A stretch of 61,917 nt of DNA, counting the filler, from Globobulimina sp. (lineage: Eukaryota): the NCBI GenBank assembly GCA_003354225.1. It is 13 parts of 13 records of this genome, joined end to end, with 100 filler letters (N's around TTAATTAATTAA, not from the genome) between each part and the next. Parts side by side here need not be neighbours in the genome. Positions count along the whole stretch, not along the records: positions 28,647 to 33,317 come from PIVH01001014.1; 12 more parts are not named here. One strand, given 5' to 3'. The number at the start of each line of letters is the position of its first letter. The first letter of the stretch is position 1. Under the pieces are notes generated by a model. The model was not told the DNA's origin. It saw nothing but the letters and a program-made list of their open reading frames with translations, and did no database searches. Positions 19,105 to 33,317 of the stretch are shown piece after piece. A program made the position numbers and the translations under genes.

Positions 19105-19525
19105 CTTACTGGCCGTAATGGAAACTATTGATAACGGCAAACCGATACGCGAGACCAGGGATATCGCTATTCCCTGGGTAGCGCGGCATTTTTATTATCA
19201 GGCCGGAAGGGCACAGCTCACTGATAGTGAATTTCCGGATATGCAGGGCGTGGGTGTGTGTGGGCAGGTCATTCCGTGGAATTTTCCATTATTGATGTTG
19301 GCCTGGAAAGTCGCTCCGGCTCTGGCAGCAGGGTGTACAATTGTTCTGAAACCAGCAGAATATACACCCTTGACCGCCATGATTTTTGCTCAATTGTGTA
19401 ATGAGGCCGGATTACCCAGGGGTGTTTTCAATATTGTCAATGGTGATGGAAGTACCGGTGCTGCGATAACTGAACACAAGGCTTTTGACAAGATCGCATT
19501 TACTGGTTCGACGGATGTTGGTCGC
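19105..19525 (+). CDS. Aldehyde dehydrogenase internal fragment, bacterial-like
   Basis: ETIDNGKPIRETRD, GQVIPWNFPLLM, WKVAPALAAGCTIVLKPAE, DKIAFTGSTDVGR. The catalytic Glu/Cys half is absent. Confidence 0.9.
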
Positions 19526-22500
19526 ATCGCCAGTCACTTTTATATCGACTGCGAAACCATCGGTGTTTGGAACGAGAACATCTGTAATAACTGCACCATC
19601 GAAGACATTTTGGATTTGATATGTTTGGCCACAGAGTTCAAGCAACTGACAATGAGAGAGGAGGAGGAAAGGGATCTGATCCAATTGAGAAAGGAATGCT
19701 GTCCGTACGCCATCAAATCGTTGCAACGCGGCCCCGATTCGCCGCAAACAAAAGCAAACATTTTGTTGCAATGCTATATTGGCCGACAAATGTATCAGAT
19801 CCGGCACCCGACGCTGCTGAATGACTTAGGATATATTAAGCAGAATGCGGGCCGGATCGCGAGTGCTCTCTTTCAGATTGCGGTCAAAGTCGGCTATTCC
19901 AACTTAGCTTGCGAGGCCTTGAAAATCTGCAAAGTGATCCAGCGGCAGGTCTGGCATCACCAGACTCCATTGCGCCAATTCCAGGCCATCCGCACCGAGC
20001 TATGCATGAAAGTGGAACGCGCAAACCTCAGAATCTACCAACTGTGCGAGTACAAAGCGTCTGAAATCGGCCGAATGCTCAGAGACCAAAGGAACGGCGC
20101 TCATGTCAAGAAATTGGCCAATTTGATACCGAGAGTGGCCTTAAACTGCAAAGCCAGGCCGATAACGCGCACCTTGTTGGCCGTGGACATTTCGTTGGAG
20201 CCGAACTTCCGATGGGTGCGGAACCAGCATAGTCAGACGCAGCTGTTTCATATCTGGGTGGACGATGTGATAAAACGCGAAATCTATCATCACGAAACCT
20301 ATACAATGACAGACAAAGCTTACGCGGAAGAAGAAGAGTTATCGGTTTCCATCGTCTTACCCATTCCCGAAGGCGACGACGAAGTGCCGCCGCAATATCA
20401 AATCCATTTCATCTCTGCGTTTTGGTTGGGCTCTCACAGCATTTTCCCGCTCTCCTTCCAGCACTTAATCCGTCCGCAAGACTACCCGCCGCAGACATTA
20501 TTGCTGGATTTGCATCCATTGCCAATCGGCGCTTTGCAGAGCGAGCAATGGGAGACTTTGTACCGTGGCAAGTTTGAGTACTTCAATCCGATACAAACAC
20601 AGGTTTTCCACGTTGCGTACCACACAAACAACGCCATATTAATGTGCGCGCCAACTGGTTCCGGCAAGACTGTCATCGCAGAATTGGTGACATTTCGGTC
20701 CTTATCTTGCAATCCGGAAAAGAAAATCATTTACATTGCGCCCTTAAAAGCGTTGGCCAGAGAACGATATCGGACTTGGAAGGCTTCGTTTGGTGCCAAG
20801 TTGGGGTTCAATGTGATTATGTTGACTGGCGATATGACGCCGGACCGGCAGGCCATTAACAGCTCGCATATTATCATCACCACTCCGGAGAAATGGGACG
20901 GCATCTCTCGATATTGGAAGTCGCGCAGATATGTCAAGAAAGTGGGCGTGATCATCTTTGACGAGATCCATTTGCTGGGCTTGGACCGTGGCCCCATTTT
21001 AGAAGTGATTGTGGCTCGTTTGCGCTTCGTAGAGCGGCGCCTCTTAGCTCGCGACGACAGCGACAAAGTGCGCTTATTGGGGTTGTCGACGGCCTTAGCA
21101 AACGCCACGGATTTGGCTGATTGGTTAGGCGTCGCCGCCTATGGTCAGAGTCCGGGTTTGTACAATTTCCCCGCCGCTCAGAGGCCGGTGCCGTGCCAGG
21201 TGCACATCCAAGGATATCCGGGCAAGCATTATTGCCCTCGCATGGCCACTATGAACAAGCCGTGCTACGCCGCCATCAAATCGCATTCGATGAATAAGCC
21301 GGTGCTGATCTTCGTGTCTTCGCGGCGCCAAACCCGGCTGACGGCCATCGATTTGATCTCATTCATTTCGCGCGAGATCTCCTCCTCAAAGTTCCTAAAC
21401 ATTGACAGTACGGAAATGAACTACATTTTGCGCGATGTGCGCGACGTGAACCTGCGGCATACGTTGGCCTTTGGTATCGGTATACACCACGCCGGGCTGC
21501 ACCCATCGGACCGCAAGATCGTAGAGGACCTGTTCCTGAATGGCTGCATTCAGATTTTGGTGGCCACCTCGACCTTGGCGTGGGGCGTAAACTTGCCCGC
21601 TCATTTGGTGATTGTCAAAGGGACGGAATACTTTGACCCGAAGACCAAGCGCTTTGTGCAGCTGCCGGTGACCGACCTGTTACAAATGATAGGTCGGGCC
21701 GGGCGGCCTCAATACGATACGGCGGCCACTGCGGTGGTCTTAGTGCACGAACCGAAGAAGAACTTTTATAAAAGATTCTTGTATCACTCGTTCCCGGTCG
21801 AATCGTGTTTGCACGAAAACATTCACAACCACATCAACGCGGAGATCGCCGTCGGAACTTTGGATTCTATGCAGGACGGCATCGAGTACTTAACGTGGAC
21901 TTTTTTGTTTCGCCGCATCCTGAAAAACCCGACGTATTACGAATTGGAAGACATTGCGGCTGCGACGATCAACAAATATTTGCGCGATTTGCTGCGGACT
22001 GTGCTATGGGATTTGAGTGACGCCGCTTGCATACAATTTGACGATGAGAATGGCGACACGTTCTCGTCGACGGTGTGCGGTCAGATTGCGTCTTATTATT
22101 ACATGTCTTATAAAAGCATGTCGATTTTGGCGGCGTCGCTCAAATCGGACTGTACATTGAATGAATTGATCCGAATCTTGTCGTCCTGCGCAGAATACGA
22201 TGAACTGCCTGTTCGTCACAATGAGGATAAGCTGAATTTCGAGTTGGCCAAAGCTGTACCTTTGGACGTGTCTGATTTGGCTATGGATGAGCCGTCGACC
22301 AAAGCAATCTTACTATTTCAGGCACATTTCAGTCGGTTACCACTGCCGATCACCGATTATGTGACGGATTTGCGCTCCGTTTTGGATCAATCCATCCGAA
22401 TATTACAAGCTATGATCGATTATGCGTCGGCTGCCAACAATTTGTGGCTCAAATGCAGCCTAAAAATAATAAATTTAATCCAAATGATAACGCAGGGCCG

Positions 22501-23386
22501 CTGGCTAAATGACAGCACCATCGCCAATCTGCCACATATTACTCACAAATCGGTGGTTAATTTGTGGCAAAAGGCGGCCATCCAAACCTTGCCCGAATTA
22601 ATGAACTATCCGTACCACAAAAGTGCGCAAATCCTGTCTCTCGACGCCGAATTGACGCAAAACGACATCGATGAAATCATCAAAACCTTAAAATATAAAT
22701 ATCCGCGCATTCACATTCAAGTCACATTGTCGACGTTTGAGGTTGGTTTAGGACAGGAATTATTTCTCAAATGTCGCACAAAGCGGTTTTCTGGCAATCC
22801 CAACAAAATATATTCGCCCAAATGGTACAAACCAAAATTAGAAGGTTGGATTGTCATTGTTTCGTTGCATAATTCTGAGAAATTATTAGCTATCAAAAGG
22901 ATGCGCGTTGGCACACAATGGAGGACCACCAGAATAAAAATAACTATTCCTTCATCAATACACGACATCGCAGATTGTGATCCACTCCAAAATGAGCAAA
23001 TGATACTATTCGATATCTATGTGCTCAGCGATGCATATTTGGGATTGGATCAATTTTATACCATCGAATGTAACTTAGTTCATAATCTGAATGAGAATGA
23101 CAATATTGATACGGATCCACTCTTCAATTTAGAAACAGCGGACGATTTGATTGGATTAAAAACATCGATATCATCCGATTCGAATTCAAATGCAAATGCA
23201 AATGCAAGCAAAGCGCAAACAATATTATCGGGACAGACATTTGATACTTCTCTGTTGGATCCACGTAATCGGCCACAAAGAATGCAGAATATTGAAATAG
23301 ATTTTGATGACTTAAAAAGTGTTGTTACTGATAGTGATATTCAATCTGTATTGACTCAAACAACTTACATTAAGAAATGGGATTGA
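19508..23386 (+). CDS. ASCC3: ASCC3/Slh1-type Ski2-like helicase: end of cassette 1, Sec63, second helicase cassette, Sec63 (5' truncated)
   Basis: GRIASHFYI, FNPIQTQVFH, APTGSGKT, TPEKWDGISRYW, DEIHLLG, GYPGKHYCPRMATMNKP, LPVRHNED. Confidence 0.9.
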   Translation, partial: STDVGRIASHFYIDCETIGVWNENICNNCTIEDILDLICLATEFKQLTMREEEERDLIQLRKECCPYAIKSLQRGPDSPQTKANILLQCYIGRQMYQIRHPTLLNDLGYIKQNAGRIASALFQIAVKVGYSNLACEALKICKVIQRQVWHHQTPLRQFQAIRTELCMKVERANLRIYQLCEYKASEIGRMLRDQRNGAHVKKLANLIPRVALNCKARPITRTLLAVDISLEPNFRWVRNQHSQTQLFHIWVDDVIKREIYHHETYTMTDKAYAEEEELSVSIVLPIPEGDDEVPPQYQIHFISAFWLGSHSIFPLSFQHLIRPQDYPPQTLLLDLHPLPIGALQSEQWETLYRGKFEYFNPIQTQVFHVAYHTNNAILMCAPTGSGKTVIAELVTFRSLSCNPEKKIIYIAPLKALARERYRTWKASFGAKLGFNVIMLTGDMTPDRQAINSSHIIITTPEKWDGISRYWKSRRYVKKVGVIIFDEIHLLGLDRGPILEVIVARLRFVERRLLARDDSDKVRLLGLSTALANATDLADWLGVAAYGQSPGLYNFPAAQRPVPCQVHIQGYPGKHYCPRMATMNKPCYAAIKSHSMNKPVLIFVSSRRQTRLTAIDLISFISREISSSKFLNIDSTEMNYILRDVRDVNLRHTLAFGIGIHHAGLHPSDRKIVEDLFLNGCIQILVATSTLAWGVNLPAHLVIVKGTEYFDPKTKRFVQLPVTDLLQMIGRAGRPQYDTAATAVVLVHEPKKNFYKRFLYHSFPVESCLHENIHNHINAEIAVGTLDSMQDGIEYLTWTFLFRRILKNPTYYELEDIAAATINKYLRDLLRTVLWDLSDAACIQFDDENGDTFSSTVCGQIASYYYMSYKSMSILAASLKSDCTLNELIRILSSCAEYDELPVRHNEDKLNFELAKAVPLDVSDLAMDEPSTKAILLFQAHFSRLPLPITDYVTDLRSVLDQSIRILQAMIDYASAANNLWLKCSLKIINLIQMITQGRWLNDSTIANLPHITHKSVVNLWQKAAIQTLPELMNYPYHKSAQILSLDAELTQNDIDEIIKTLKYKYPRIHIQVTLSTFEVGLGQELFLKCRTKRFSGNPNKIYSPKWYKPKLEGWIVIVSLHNSEKLLAIKRMRVGTQWRTTRIKITIPSSIHDIADCDPLQNEQMILFDIYVLSDAYLGLDQFYTIECNLVHNLNENDNIDTDPLFNLETADDLIGLKTSISSDSNSNANANASKAQTILSGQTFDTSLLDPRNRPQRMQNIEIDFDDLKSVVTDSDIQSVLTQTTYIKKWD

Positions 23387-23639
23387 TTCTCTTTGTTTTT
23401 TAATGTGATGTACTCTTTCGTCGATCGATCAGTTCACTTTGACTTAATTCTGCACAGTAAACCAAGACCAGTCAATAATTAAACTGTCTAAAAACTTTAA
23501 TTGCTTTTGTTGGGTATGAGCATAGCGACTCTTTCGTCATTTCGCTTGGCTTTGGCCTTGTTGTATTGTGTGGGTATTGGATCAGTTAGTAACTGGGTTG
23601 AAGGAAACAATTCAATTCTTCGGTTTGAGCACCAAACCT

Positions 23640-23775
23640 CAAATGAAGGTGAAAAAGAATTTAATTTCGATGGCTGGGTTAATGAGAATGGTTTAAATGA
23701 TATTAAACATATATTTATAAAACATAATATGACAACACCTGATACATTATCTGCGCTGTCATCGTCATTTAAAGA
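23640..23775 (+). CDS. Possible SAM-like domain fragment
   Basis: FDGWVNENGLNDIKHIFIKHNM pattern at the contig end. Confidence 0.3.
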
Positions 23776-28646: not shown

Positions 28647-28948
28647 TGGATTGGCCACACGATATTTGTTTCACCGTGTCTGTAAAATGTCAAATCCATA
28701 ACATTATACGAAAAGGCAAAAGATGCTGGAAGATAATGGGAAATGGTGGATCCGATCGCATGTTTATCCTGAATGAAACTGTAAAATGAATAAAATGTAA
28801 TGATCATACATAAATATTTGTAAATCTCTTGCATGGGGTGTGATTGACCCATCACATACGCATTCGATTCCTTCTTGAAATAAATCTTGAATAAGAACAA
28901 CCACAACATTGAACATCCAATGAAACATGACAACAATTCTAAATCCAT
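28647..28948 (-). CDS. Membrane protein N-terminus, possibly TLC-domain
   Basis: Hydrophobic ORF from the ATG at 28948 containing FSYNVMDL; runs into the linker. Confidence 0.4.
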
Positions 28949-29099
28949 CTCGAAAAACAAATGTTTCTGTGTTTTCTCTTTTTGAGATTGATTGTTTTGT
29001 CTTTTTTTTTTATTGCGGAGAATATCGATTATGAATAGAAAAAAGGTAGAAAAGAAAAAAGACGAAGTTCTAATATTAGGGTTTTCCACAAAAATAGGA

Positions 29100-30565
29100 T
29101 TATAAAGCATGGATTATGAAGGTAGCTGGAATATACGTTTTCTTGCCCACTCTGGTATAATGTGGTTTTCCTTTATATTTATCATCTTGCATGACATAAT
29201 CACCGTTAACTACTGAATTCCCTCCTTCTCTTCCAGAAATACGCATAACAGTTATTTGATCTTCATCGGATTTTTCTTTCTGATCATTCTGATTCAATAT
29301 TTTTTCCATTCTCTGCACAGTTGTCATATAATAATGATTCAATGTAAATGGTTTGCGTTTCTCTGCTCGAATAATATCATTGATTAATTCTATTGCTTTC
29401 TCTTTATTTCTTTGAAGGATAATATTGAATAAATACTGTAAATTCCTTTGTAATTCATTATAATCCACACAAACATCTATGATTGAATGATTGATTTGTT
29501 TTTTAATCTGATCAAATATTGAATCAATCAATTGCATCGAAGGTTCTTCTAATTTCTCAACCATGGTCCGTATCATTTTAACCGCTATCAATGGATGCAT
29601 TGTATTTGGTAATGCACAAAATCCTCTGCTGCTTCCACTCATTCTTTTTAAATCATATAAAAACGCTTCACCCAAAAAGAATTGAACGGAAATAATTGAC
29701 GGATTTTCTCCGCAAAATCTTCTTGAATTGATAAAACAATGGATGATAAAGAAGCGTCAGAATGATCCATTTCCATCATATTTCCTTCTTTTATTCGATT
29801 TAATTTGCTGAATAATTGGGAGATCAGGATCGAGATTTTATTCTGCGTTATTGGAGATTATTATTGATTAATATTTATAAAAAGATAAACAGCTAAACTG
29901 TGCATTCTTGAGGCGATTTTAATATTTGCGGAAATCCTTTCTGTTCTTTTCGTAATTCATCATATTTTTCATTGATTGCTTTTTTGAGATCAGGAAGAGC
30001 GCGACGCATTGTTTCTGTTTGTAATTCTGCTAAATATTTGCTCAATTCCTTGCTTCCTTTATATTTATCATCGATACATGTCATATTTTCTGCATTCAAA
30101 AAATGTGTAAATTCCTCTTCTTGCACTTGCTTCAATGAGATATTCTTTTGATTCTGTTCATCTGTTCTGTTCTTCACCAAAAATACATGATCAAAATCCT
30201 CTTTAAACGCCTGATATTTCTCATTGAATGATCCTTTGTTGTTCAATAAATCTATGAATGTCAATACAATTAATGTTCGTTCGTTTTCCGGATCCACTTC
30301 TTGAGACATTTTCAATGATGCCGTGTTTGCCGTTTCGTTGATGCATTTCACCACATTGAGCATGATTGTTTGAGAATTGTCGATATATTTCTTCACCAAA
30401 TTCTCGATCATCTATCAAAAACACATGAGTTTATACTTTCTGGAGAATTTCGGAGAAGCAAACCTCGGATTTCTGTGGATTTTTCTTATCGAAATGCACC
30501 AAACCGGGCAGATCAATATCAGCTCTATAAATCGTGAGGACAATCGGCGAAGCGGATATTGATTT
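29100..30565 (-). CDS. Mx/dynamin-like GTPase fragment lacking the P-loop
   Basis: IDLPG (G3), SLKMSQEVDPENERTLIVLT, LVKNRT, SRGFCALPN and PFTLNHYY motifs with introns. No GxxSxGKS found upstream. Confidence 0.8.
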
Positions 30566-30634
30566 CAGAATAAAATTTTGTGGTACAATTTATAAAAGTA
30601 TGCAAATGCGTAAACTAATCATAAATTATGTGTG

Positions 30635-32325
30635 TTACAACTCATTATGCGCCGAACTTGGCGCAGAACTACGCATATATCGTGAACCATAATCATGCAA
30701 AATATTTCTTTTTTCTCTTTCACCAATTTTTTGCCCTCTACCTCTCTTTTCTTTAATTTTTTGAATTTTATCCTCCACCACATCATCCTCCATACGTTCC
30801 ATCATTCTCACATTTGCTGTAAAAAATGATTCAGAAATTGATAAAGGCTCAGCTTCAAATGAACGAAAATGATTACTTTTTTTTAATAAATCAATATTAT
30901 GAAATAACATCTTTCTTTTATTTATTGCTTCATCAAACTTTTCATTCTCGATATCCATCAATATTTCTTTATCAATACTTCGTATTTCATTCAATTGCCA
31001 AAATACTTTAACATGATCATTAATATTATCATCTGATTCTAATCTTTTATCATCGTTTGCAATTAATTCAACCTCGATCTTTCCAGAAACACTTTTTCTT
31101 TCTTTTCTTAAAATATCATTATATTCCAACTTCCAGTCCATCACAGCAATTTTTTCTGCAATTTTATGGTTATCTTTTGCTTCTACCAATAATTCAATTA
31201 TAACATATTTAGAATCACCAGCTCTCAAATCACGAATATCAATTTGATTATAATTGATATGCTCCTCCTCATCCAACAAGCCTCTGTCAAACATATCGCT
31301 AAACCTAACATTTATATTTTCTGTTTCATTTTGTGCTGTGAGCACAGTCAATGTCGCTTTATTACCAACGAGAGCTGCTGCGTCTTTCCTGGCGATTCCA
31401 ATGACTTTGGAAATGGCTTCGGCTGAGTCCATAAAAAAAAAATCACCTCTGGTGGCTTCCGAAATGGCGTTCATTAATTTTCGGTCAAAATCATAACCAA
31501 TGCCAAATGACGATATTGTAACATCCAATTCATTATTCCATGTGGATATGTCATCCAATATCTGTTTATGCAGCAATTAAATGCAAAATGCAACAACATA
31601 TATAACAGAAAATAAACACATTGTACAAGTTACTTGTTTGGTGTCTGTAACCCCCGCATTTAACAATCCGTCGCTGAATAAAAATATCCGTGAATGCGAA
31701 ATAACATCATTTTCTTTGTTTTTACGCACATTTATCCATTTCTTCAACACCTCATATGCTTTTGATAAGCCTCCAAATAAATTGGTAGCTCCACCTGCTG
31801 TGATTTTGTCCACCTTCTCTATAATTCTGCTCTGTGACCGCTTATCACCGTTTTCAACTAATAACTTATTTTATTCGTCACACAAGAAACACATCATCAT
31901 TATATGTATGATTTGTATGTATAGAATTATAGATTATATACTTGAACACTATGATCGTATTGAATAAGATGAATGATATCTCCTTCAATCATATTATCAA
32001 TGATCCCAGTCATGGCTAACTTTGCTTGTTCAATTTTATTTCCTGCCATTGATCCACTTCGATCTAAAACAATTGCTAACTCGAATGGTTGACGAGTTGT
32101 TTGTTGGTCAACTTGGTCATTTGGAATTGATTGTGACGTTGTGATATCAAATAACACTCCAATTTTGGTTGGTGACGTGTTGCTAATATAGTTATGTGAA
32201 ATTGATGGCGTAACTTTAACAATTGGGTCATTTTGCAGGTCGCGTTTTAAAATAGTATTTTCTTCACCGAATGCATTACAAATCAATAGATGAACGACGA
32301 AAACAACCAACGTTAACATATGCAT
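30635..32325 (-). CDS. Secreted vWA-domain protein, 3 exons
   Basis: Signal peptide; MIDAS LAIVLDRSGSMAG, GGATNL, FLFSDGLLNAG, SSFGIGYDFD. Confidence 0.88.
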
Positions 32326-32652
32326 TTGTCTCTATTTGGTTTCCTATGAACCTCAGAACAAAAAGTGTAATTTTGACTAACTGTTTTTCAAGTTACCTCT
32401 ACACGCTTTGAGAGTACATAATTAATTAATTAATTGCAATTCATGTAGCTATAGTCATGTACAGTTAATTATCATTAGTATATTTATGATTGCTCACTCA
32501 TTACAACAATCTCTTCTTCAAAACCGTTTTTTGAGAACATTTAATATATGTCGATCGAACCTTACGTTCTGTTTTTCTCCCACCAAATAAATCAAGTTTA
32601 AATCGCATTGTTTAACTCAAATTAATTGCGTGGAAACAAACCAACCATCAGC

Positions 32653-32871
32653 GGTTCAGTAGCTCAACGTAGAGCGTGTGTCTGTGACTTCTGTCATTCC
32701 AAACGACTGTGCATTATGCATTCTCGGCCTTTTGGCTAAGATTGCCTACTCTCGGCCCCTTGGCTAAGCTGTAGGTGTATCCTTTGTTTGTTTGGTTCAT
32801 TCAAACTTCATCATACAAAATGAACTTGGAAATATTTCACATTGATGTAGGTTCAAATCCTACCTGAGCCA
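32653..32871 (+). tRNA. tRNA-His(GTG)-like gene with a 148-nt insert (32688-32835) at position 37/38; possibly a degenerate tRNA shell
   Basis: Acceptor GGTTCAG/CTGAGCC + A73; D-stem GCTC/GAGC; anticodon stem TGTGT/TCACA (one mismatch) with loop CT-GTG-A; T-arm GTAGG-TTCAAAT-CCTAC; TTTT 3 nt downstream. The D-loop is short and lacks GG. Confidence 0.75.
32716..32782 (+). ncRNA. Two tandem U2 snRNA 5'-end (stem I) sequences inside the tRNA insert
   Basis: 32721-32742 TTCTCGGCCTTTTGGCTAAGAT is identical to the conserved U2 5' region. 32750-32768 TCTCGGCCCCTTGGCTAAG is a variant copy. The canonical GTAGTA branch-site motif is absent. Confidence 0.75.
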
Positions 32872-32959
32872 TATTTTACAACGAGTAAGTCCGATGCCAT
32901 GTTATCCCACTGCAGCGCTCGAAACTTTTGCACTTTGTGTTTTTTATTTTTAACAAACT

Positions 32960-33317
32960 ATGCATCCCTTCCATGCTCTCAGCACAATATTGTGTTGGTT
33001 CTCACTGCTATTGTTTCTAATTAATTGTGTTTGCAGTTCATATAACTTAATTAATACAAACCCAGGATGTTACGATGTAGGATTATGTTTATACGGATAT
33101 CCAGGAGGCAACAATTCAATTCATCCAAAGTATAGTACTCTATATATGCAAACAAACGCCACTATACATATATTTCATTATATAGCGCAGAAGAAAGAAC
33201 ACAACATTTATTTCATAATATCGCACGTGGATTTCCTCGCTCTTTCACCAATTCCAAATTTGGAAAACATAAATATGGAACATGGGGAAATCAAACTTAT
33301 TATATTTGTGATATCAA
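32960..33317 (+). CDS. Secreted hypothetical protein, 3' partial
   Basis: Signal-peptide-like N-terminus, then NPGCYDVGLCLYGYPGG. Confidence 0.45.

Follow-up and report, generated by a model that had tools for sequence, protein, structure and literature searches.

Two U2 snRNA-like 5'-terminal fragments in the 148-nt canonical-site intron of a tRNA-His(gtg)-like element of Globobulimina sp.

A stretch of 61,917 nucleotides (nt) of DNA from Globobulimina sp. (GenBank assembly GCA_003354225.1), here called the window, holds at 32653-32877 on the plus strand a transfer RNA (tRNA) element whose intron carries sequence like that of U2 small nuclear RNA (snRNA). The window is made of 13 contigs of ~4.67 kb each, artificially joined, and the element lies on contig 28647-33317 (PIVH01001014.1). 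The locus is genomic and real and its nested arrangement is specific, the tRNA being broken exactly at position 37/38. As far as sequence comparison tells, the intron is in part U2-derived and the tRNA shell is a member of a small tRNA(GUG, His-type) family. We put the probability at about 0.5 that a tRNA intron, which tolerates cargo and was already in place, took up a complementary DNA (cDNA) of the U2 5' end.

The shell was recognised by two programs. A search of the whole window against Rfam with cmscan gave a sole match above threshold, to the tRNA model RF00005 at 32653-32871 on the plus strand (42.2 bits with a gathering threshold of 29, E-value 1.4e-05, model positions 1-71 of 71), with an insertion of 150 nt in the anticodon loop. 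ARAGORN, run on the contig with introns allowed, found one gene, a tRNA-His(gtg) of 71 nt with an intron of 148 nt; in its default mode without introns it found 0 genes. Rfam and ARAGORN agree that the insert begins one base past the anticodon. The two strands of the acceptor stem, 200 nt apart, pair at 7/7 positions. An earlier note on this DNA had described, from the sequence, a complete cloverleaf with a GTG anticodon, a B box, a downstream T-run and an interruption of 148 nt one base past the anticodon, at the 37/38 site, which contains a 22-nt exact match to the U2 5' end. All of this was recovered here (Table 1), as were its caveats, which were a D loop without GG, a U31:U39 mismatch and the lack of a clear pair between C32 and the intron.

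These caveats are part of a wider weakening of the shell. The D loop AACGUA has a single G and no G18G19, and the A box region TAGCTCAACG is without its GG part; the B box GGTTCAAATCC is present and the T loop UUCAAAU is canonical. The terminator is only a T4 run, with stronger T runs (T6, T5) at 32940-32951, and a T4 run inside the intron (32730-32733) has the same length as the one after the gene. The anticodon stem does not reach its full five pairs, with U31 opposite U39 (marked 'v' in the cmscan alignment). Canonical eukaryotic tRNA introns generally require a pair between position 32 and intron position -3, the anticodon-intron (A-I) pair; this pair is absent here, where C32 stands opposite a U at 32833 (intron position -3), as read from the sequence. 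With its short D loop, no G18G19, U31-U39, no A-I pair and a T4 run in the intron, the tRNA copy looks degraded and, as a gene, is probably weak or dead; production of a spliced tRNA from it is possible but doubtful. The usual intron carrier is tRNA-Tyr, and His-type tRNAs are not known as usual carriers. An origin from tRNA-Tyr(GUA) was considered and set aside: the acceptor stem starts with G1-C72, judged by the Tyr identity rule.

The U2 sequence of the intron was found with the Rfam model RF00004. A permissive Rfam scan of 32500-33000 gave four matches, to the tRNA, to U2, to a PyrC leader and to a plastid ycf2 5' untranslated region; the last two had E-values of 1.3-1.4 and were discarded as chance. 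The RF00004 match at 32716-32862 scored 25.3 bits, below the gathering threshold of 46, with an E-value of 0.0039 in the 501-nt search and 0.48 in the whole window. Posterior probabilities were '*' over model positions 1-27 and low in the alignment past position 27. In this first copy, 22 nt (32721-32742) are identical to the printed Rfam consensus, where 4.6e-09 matches to the consensus 22-mer are expected from the base composition of the window on both strands. A second, diverged copy follows in tandem: its core, 32750-32768, is 89% identical over 19 nt to 32722-32740, 28 nt upstream of it. The loop of copy 2 is CCUU versus UUUU in copy 1, and copy 2 lies inside a longer predicted hairpin closed by CCUAC/GUAGG. 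Both copies start at the U2 5' end. The intron aligned to itself with a score of 13, which was reached by 0/300 dinucleotide shuffles, and the stem-loop 17-mer, with at most three mismatches, occurs at two sites in the window, both in the intron, versus 0.04 expected. U2 snRNAs are further marked by a GUAGUA box for branch-point recognition and an Sm site of the form R-A-U(3-6)-G-R. Neither a GTAGTA box nor this Sm-site pattern is present in the intron (32688-32835). With a score of 25.3 bits, below 46, and box and Sm site missing, the U2-derived sequence of the intron is two 5'-terminal fragments and not a U2 snRNA gene. The stretch GUAGGUGUAUC (32771-32781), which is only loosely like the U2 branch-site region, was rejected as a copy of that region: its posteriors are low, and its 7-mer TGTAGGT occurs also in the T arm.

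No second copy of the element or of its insert was found in the other 12 contigs of the window. A 31-nt stretch of the element had 0 matches in metagenome_contigs, and a 21-nt stretch of T arm and acceptor matched one locus in genome_contigs, one in viral_contigs and two in metagenome_contigs, none related to the element; three of these four are intronless tRNAs in a bacterial or phage-like context and the fourth is not a tRNA.

The intron is predicted to fold strongly. Its minimum free energy (MFE) when folded alone is -38.9 kcal/mol compared with -27.99 +/- 3.33 for 200 dinucleotide shuffles (z -3.28), and 0/200 shuffles folded as well. In the MFE and the centroid structure a closing helix of 6 base pairs (bp), UUCCAA/UUGGAA, encloses an inner block of ~128 nt and leaves the first 9 and the last 4 intron bases single-stranded. 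The block is predicted to consist of a small palindromic hairpin, the U2-like stem-loop 1, a longer hairpin around the U2-like stem-loop 2 and a pair of small hairpins. The predicted fold of the 219-nt precursor (MFE -65.5 kcal/mol, z -4.12) has its acceptor, D and T arms as in a tRNA, with the intron as a separate domain. In this fold the intron segment GUCAU forms 5 bp with the first intron base and G34-U35-G36-A37, and the 3' splice site falls in a single-stranded stretch. Genuine pre-tRNAs typically have their anticodon region paired with the intron. Such helices are described as common, not required (PMC4090602; papers cited by PMC number are quoted here and below from excerpts of their text).

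Seven sequencing runs overlap 32300-33300, none of them recorded as RNA. Four were compared by their contigs only: X1, which is probably the source sample of the window and of which 11 records were used, and X5, X6 and X7, which come from other organisms with flanking transcripts 95-99% alike to the window. X5, X6 and X7 behave like RNA, as all three contain a GT..AG joint (see below) and X5 contigs end in sequencing adapters. One X1 contig (record 1) equals 32300-32783 and another (record 4) equals 32759-32873, each with 0 differences and with depths of 5.74 and 3.2, respectively. Each intron junction is inside one of these contigs, so that the boundaries at which the earlier note asked for support are covered by the probable source run; no contig spans the whole element, and the two overlap by 25 nt (32759-32783).

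Homologous copies, which the earlier note had also proposed to look for, turned up as paralogous tRNA halves in other contigs. Four more X1 contigs match only 32653-32683 and depart from the window sequence directly past U33. Together they have a depth of 54.8 versus 5.74 for the window's own contig, depth not being copy number. The D loop is 2-3 nt longer in 4/4 paralog X1 contigs that cover it (the fifth covering contig is the window's own), and the paralog D loops, as reported, are likewise without GG. Two X1 paralog contigs share their upstream flank (agreement 0.85). X1 record 3 differs in its 5' flank and D arm, matches 32670-32700 with 2 differences and then resumes at 32838; the anticodon and the first 13 intron bases (32688-32700, including GUCAU) are common to this contig and the window. 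At least three further X1 contigs match only the 3' half. Because of these paralogous halves in other X1 contigs the shell was assigned, by sequence, to a small family in which at least one paralog has the same intron start.

Near-identical 3' halves are present in contigs of X1, X5, X6 and X7, and 32838-32872 is found with 1 difference in X5, X6 and X7; 5'-half matches were not found in the contigs of these three runs. In X6 and X7 the 3' halves have at least 82 nt upstream that do not resemble the 5' exon, an A where the window has U39 (before CACA), and downstream a short trailer with a T9 run behind it. A permuted or split tRNA was rejected as an explanation of the X6 and X7 3' halves because of the T9 run directly past their 3' end. 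X5 contains contigs of 31-32 nt with a depth of 435-550 that match the 3' half with 1 difference. A longer X5 contig (record 11; RNA, 193 nt, depth 53.5) carries the 3' half with 5 differences in 42 and ends in ...A-CC followed by adapter; upstream of the 3' half it has 127 unaligned nt and 11 aligned intron nt, that is at least 138 nt that are not 5' exon. The stretch 32572-32809 is missing from the contigs of X5, X6 and X7, which tells nothing either way on expression. A separate observation concerns the paralogous 3' halves of two organisms, where past 32872-32874, in contigs of X1, X6 and X7, a similar GC-rich trailer of ~12 nt leads into a run of T6-T9; tRNA genes do not usually have a conserved 3' trailer.

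The reading that we favour, capture of the U2 5' end by a tRNA intron, would start from a tRNA family that already had a short intron at 37/38, the 5' part of which paired with the anticodon. A pre-existing intron is likely because X1 record 3, with its different 5' flank, shares 32670-32700. In the copy under study the intron would have been enlarged to 148 nt by the self-folding block of ~128 nt, with two tandem uptakes of U2 snRNA nt 1-27 as its core, and the source would be template switching by reverse transcriptase (RT) or capture of U2 5'-end cDNA during repair. This origin by RT or capture is one that we infer, because no target-site duplication (TSD) or tail backs the mechanism. A tRNA intron would be permissive because the splicing endonuclease, which measures from the tRNA body, removes any content. 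The copy would have drifted later, or it was a weak paralog already, and the U2 pieces are probably passengers without a function of their own. Behind this reading stand the confinement of the U2 likeness to model positions 1-27, the tandem copies, the degraded shell, the T4 run in the intron and the absence of a second insert from the window's other 12 contigs. Truncation at the 3' end is known from snRNA retropseudogenes, which arise by the same RT or capture process. Tandem re-addition of U2 5' pieces by RT template switching of long interspersed elements (LINEs) is described for the crocodilian SINEU family and chimeric snRNA retrocopies (PMC4494074, in the excerpts used).

Several observations weigh against capture of a passenger. 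The element has no TSD, poly(A) or other insertion scar; TCATTC(C)AAAC (at 32693 and 32795) was tried as a TSD and rejected, its score of 8 being matched by 87/300 shuffles. Likewise rejected was a 15-nt repeat that flanks the element (32617 and 33016; 87% identical), the core of which, AATTAATTG, recurs 8 times in the window. Copy 1 is still identical to the U2 consensus at 22/22 positions. The intron folds far beyond chance, with a 6-bp helix that joins its ends, and such a predicted structured intron with joined ends is the architecture of expressed intron cargo, for example of tRNA intronic circular RNAs (tricRNAs). The D loop and the 31:39 pair aside, the shell keeps U8, A14, A21, U33, G53-C61, the UUCAAAU T loop and A73. 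Finally, X5 record 11 hints, though it does no more than that, at transcription and 3' maturation of long-intron relatives in a related organism.

Some of these points would suit a working long-intron tRNA-His gene, transcribed by RNA polymerase III (Pol III) through the T4 run, matured at its ends, supplied with CCA and spliced by TSEN (the tRNA splicing endonuclease) as a ruler, with the U2 cargo degraded. Such a gene would explain the score of 42.2 bits on the tRNA model despite the insert, the call as His(gtg), the intron exactly at 37/38 with 5 predicted bp between it and the anticodon region, and an MFE structure of the precursor in which the arms (acceptor, D and T) form beside the intron as a separate domain. 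It would also suit the 31-32-nt 3'-half contigs of X5 and the RNA contig that ends in CC and adapter. According to the excerpts, the endonuclease measures from the tRNA body and accepts varied intron sequence (PMC4090602), and a fly tRNA intron of 113 nt is spliced (PMC4536317). The shell speaks another language: it has no G18G19 and a D loop 2-3 nt below that of all four paralog contigs, U31 and U39 do not match and no A-I pair is available for the 3' splice site; further, the intron contains a T4 run and, with 148 nt, exceeds the range of 6-133 nt quoted for canonical introns. A spliced form of the locus is present in no run, the lone joint of 32700 to 32838 being in a DNA-type X1 contig with another 5' flank, and X5, X6 and X7 are without any 5'-half match. 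We regard a working tRNA gene as unlikely. Retroposition of a tRNA-derived repeat, similar to a short interspersed element (SINE) and with a composite body that includes a U2 module, is still less probable. It is suggested by the multi-copy tRNA halves in X1 (four further 5' contigs and at least three 3'-half contigs), by paralog D loops none of which has the GG seen in working cytosolic tRNAs as a rule, and by crocodilian SINEs with U2-derived parts (excerpts of PMC4494074). However, acceptor strands that pair 7/7 over a distance of 200 nt mean a nested insertion and not an order of head, body and tail, the sense-strand T-runs past the 3' end are as in Pol III genes, and the upstream flank common to two paralog contigs (agreement 0.85) fits segmental duplication better than retroposition. 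The insert is in no other contig, though contigs can miss copies. A high-copy decayed SINE with TSDs had been named in the earlier note as the case that would speak against its proposal; neither TSDs, an A-rich tail nor a high-copy SINE signature were found.

The proposal itself, in which the tRNA would serve an snRNA-like RNA as its Pol III promoter and its processing cassette, was not supported, in contrast to the description on which it was built, of a tRNA shell with a partly U2-derived insert at 37/38. In its full form the shell would supply Pol III transcription, end maturation and excision by TSEN of a 148-nt linear or circular RNA, which would be stable and act as a mimic of the U2 5' end; it could pair with U6 snRNA as a decoy or titrate the proteins that bind U2 stem-loop I. 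The strongly structured intron with its terminal helix (z -3.28) is consistent with this, as is the identity of copy 1 with the most conserved part of U2; in copy 2 the CCUU loop has lost the T4 run, which would favour read-through by Pol III. An intron with a C/D box RNA in Haloferax tRNA-Trp (PMC3326292) and tric31905 (PMC4536317), both known to us from excerpts, are precedents. The 8-mer TTGGCTAA of both U2-like copies also occurs in X5 record 11, within the last 30 nt before the 3' half, but there it belongs to an A-U hairpin that has no CUCGGCC strand, and the match may be due to chance. Against a function as a mimic stand the score of 25.3 versus 46 bits, the presence of only 27 nt of U2 with no GUAGUA branch-site box, Sm site or 3' stem-loops, the T4 run kept in copy 1 and the degraded host shell. 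Only a single locus is seen: the rest of the window has no further copy, and nothing related came from three public collections. We hold a functional mimic to be very improbable; what keeps the functional readings alive is the strength of the fold with its closing helix, a copy 1 that is still intact, and the X5 contig. Lowest of all we rate an artefact, an assembly join or a chimera of whole-genome amplification that placed U2-like DNA between tRNA halves. The low X1 depths (5.74 and 3.2), the 25-nt overlap in place of a spanning contig, the likely origin of the window from X1, which makes X1 not independent, the gap of X5, X6 and X7 at 32572-32809 and the high fragmentation of the assembly would permit it. 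Yet record 1 runs from the 5' exon through the U2 copies and record 4 from the tail of copy 2 into the 3' exon, both with 0 differences, the halves are co-oriented and broken precisely at 37/38, and the first 13 intron bases recur in a paralog. Neither the closing helix nor a z of -3.3 would be expected of a random chimera.

Compared with known systems, the element shares with canonical intron-bearing tRNA genes an intron one base 3' of the anticodon, complementarity of anticodon and intron, and a mature domain predicted to fold independently of the intron. It differs from them in its length, 148 nt versus the 6-133 nt given for canonical eukaryotic tRNA introns in the excerpts of PMC4090602, and in the lack of G18G19, a full anticodon stem and the A-I pair. 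The 113-nt intron of Drosophila tRNA-Tyr CR31905, tric31905, is a stable circular RNA that is conserved among drosophilids with covarying pairs, and its expression and circularity were shown (PMC4536317, as excerpted). Like the element, tric31905 is an unusually long, strongly structured canonical-site intron whose ends are brought together; unlike it, the element has cargo that is recognisably snRNA-derived, and it is known from the sequence of a single locus. In Haloferax volcanii the tRNA-Trp intron of ~105 nt carries a complete box C/D guide RNA released by the splicing endonuclease (PMC3326292, in part), and here too a known type of small RNA is nested in a tRNA intron. That intron, however, is archaeal, has a bulge-helix-bulge motif and carries a functional, complete guide for its own tRNA (PMC3326292, same excerpts), whereas the cargo of the element is only the first 27 nt of U2, twice. 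With snRNA retropseudogenes and SINEU the element shares U2 5' fragments in new places and tandem 5' pieces; SINEU is, as far as the excerpts of PMC4494074 go, a crocodilian multi-copy family with tails and often TSDs, whereas the element is one locus without TSD or tail and has its fragments inside a tRNA intron. Trypanosomatid U2 genes, which have a tRNA or tRNA-like A/B boxes as neighbours, also link Pol III promoter elements of tRNA type to U2 sequence, but there, in the excerpts of PMC4950102, the tRNA element is separate and upstream of a complete U2, and here a U2 fragment is nested. A report of U2 sequence inside a tRNA intron was not found among the papers listed by full-text searches, judged by titles and the starts of abstracts.

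The element is an unusual variation on known kinds, a long canonical-site tRNA intron and a retrocopy of a U2 5' fragment, and its support is one locus of low coverage. It does not yet speak for a new way in which snRNA-like RNAs are produced. If the U2 pieces are passengers only, the 37/38 tRNA intron would be a safe harbour for foreign sequence, U2 5'-end fragments would be copied around in a protist lineage whose mobile-element biology is almost unknown, and the length range of canonical-site tRNA introns would be extended. A stable and conserved intron RNA, if it turned out to be one, would be nature's counterpart to engineered tRNA-intron expression cassettes and a new link between Pol III transcription with tRNA processing and the spliceosome. 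It is a long shot that foraminifer-like protists keep a family of long-intron tRNAs that delivers stable U2-5'-end mimics acting on the spliceosome; this, if true, would be the first known eukaryotic tRNA intron that delivers an snRNA-like regulator.

Table 1 Features of the tRNA element and its intron, in window coordinates.
Feature	Position	Strand	Basis
tRNA 5' exon (positions 1-37)	32653-32687	+	Rfam tRNA alignment, ARAGORN
Acceptor stem, 5' strand	32653-32659	+	
A-box-like sequence TAGCTCAACG	start 32660	+	
D arm, 6-nt loop AACGUA	32662-32675	+	
Anticodon stem, 5' strand	32677-32681	+	
Anticodon GTG; A37	32684-32686; 32687	+	
Intron, 148 nt, canonical 37/38 site	32688-32835	+	ARAGORN with introns, Rfam
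Anticodon-pairing segment GUCAU	32693-32697	+	219-nt precursor MFE
Closing helix UUCCAA/UUGGAA, 6 bp	32697-32702 with 32826-32831	+	intron MFE and centroid
U2-like copy 1, U2 model positions 1-27 (5' end and stem-loop I)	32716-32742	+	cmscan RF00004
U2-like copy 2, diverged tandem repeat of 28-nt unit	32743-32770	+	repeat search, self-alignment, fold
Remaining intron block: GUAGGUGUAUC stretch, (UUUG)n stretch, two small hairpins, 3' strand of closing helix	32771-32831	+	
tRNA 3' exon (positions 38-73)	32836-32871	+	Rfam, ARAGORN
T stem-loop, canonical loop UUCAAAU	32847-32863	+	
B box GGTTCAAATCC	32850-32860	+	
Acceptor stem, 3' strand; discriminator A73	32864-32870; 32871	+	
T4 run 3 nt past discriminator, possible weak Pol III terminator	32874-32877	+	

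The element is located in a gap of 440 bp between two genes. The minus-strand neighbour encodes a secreted VWA-domain protein, with the start of its open reading frame (ORF) near 32331, and the plus-strand neighbour is a transcript with its 5' end near 32982, which in X5 is directly abutted by an adapter. In this plus-strand transcript a 56-nt GT..AG intron (33130-33185) is skipped, with the joint 33129/33186, in contigs of X5, X6 and X7; the host is a eukaryote with short GT..AG introns. Over the 5' region of the VWA gene the contigs of X5, X6 and X7 all diverge from the window at 32542/32543 and continue with up to 255 nt of unrelated sequence, the same in all three and without an AG at the break. 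The intergenic segment with the tRNA element may differ structurally between this genome and its relatives. The motif AATTAATTG is present at 8 sites in the window (5 on the plus and 3 on the minus strand), including 32428, 32620 and 33019; 3/8 sites fall in a span of 600 nt about the element, within the divergent intergenic region, and it may be a promoter-type motif.

The contigs of the window are separated by 12 spacers (24 N-runs, within 4680-57252), each made of 44 N, the 12-nt all-frame stop linker TTAATTAATTAA and 44 N. The window is not one molecule and, therefore, genes across a spacer are not neighbours. Proteins of the element's contig gave one EukProt match with 55% identity, and a second search was without a match. 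For a kinase encoded elsewhere in the window, on another contig, the best named relatives are foraminiferal (Ammonia sp. transcriptome, Reticulomyxa filosa); as this hint comes from a different contig, a foraminiferal affinity of the element's own contig is tentative. Contig 19105-23775 stands out by a GC content of 39-56% versus ~32% in the remaining window and may be chimeric or from another organism. It contains one ORF of 1422 amino acids, in which an aldehyde-dehydrogenase fragment (amino acids 1-137) is followed without a break by a Brr2-like (SNRNP200) helicase's Sec63/DEAD/helicase cassette.

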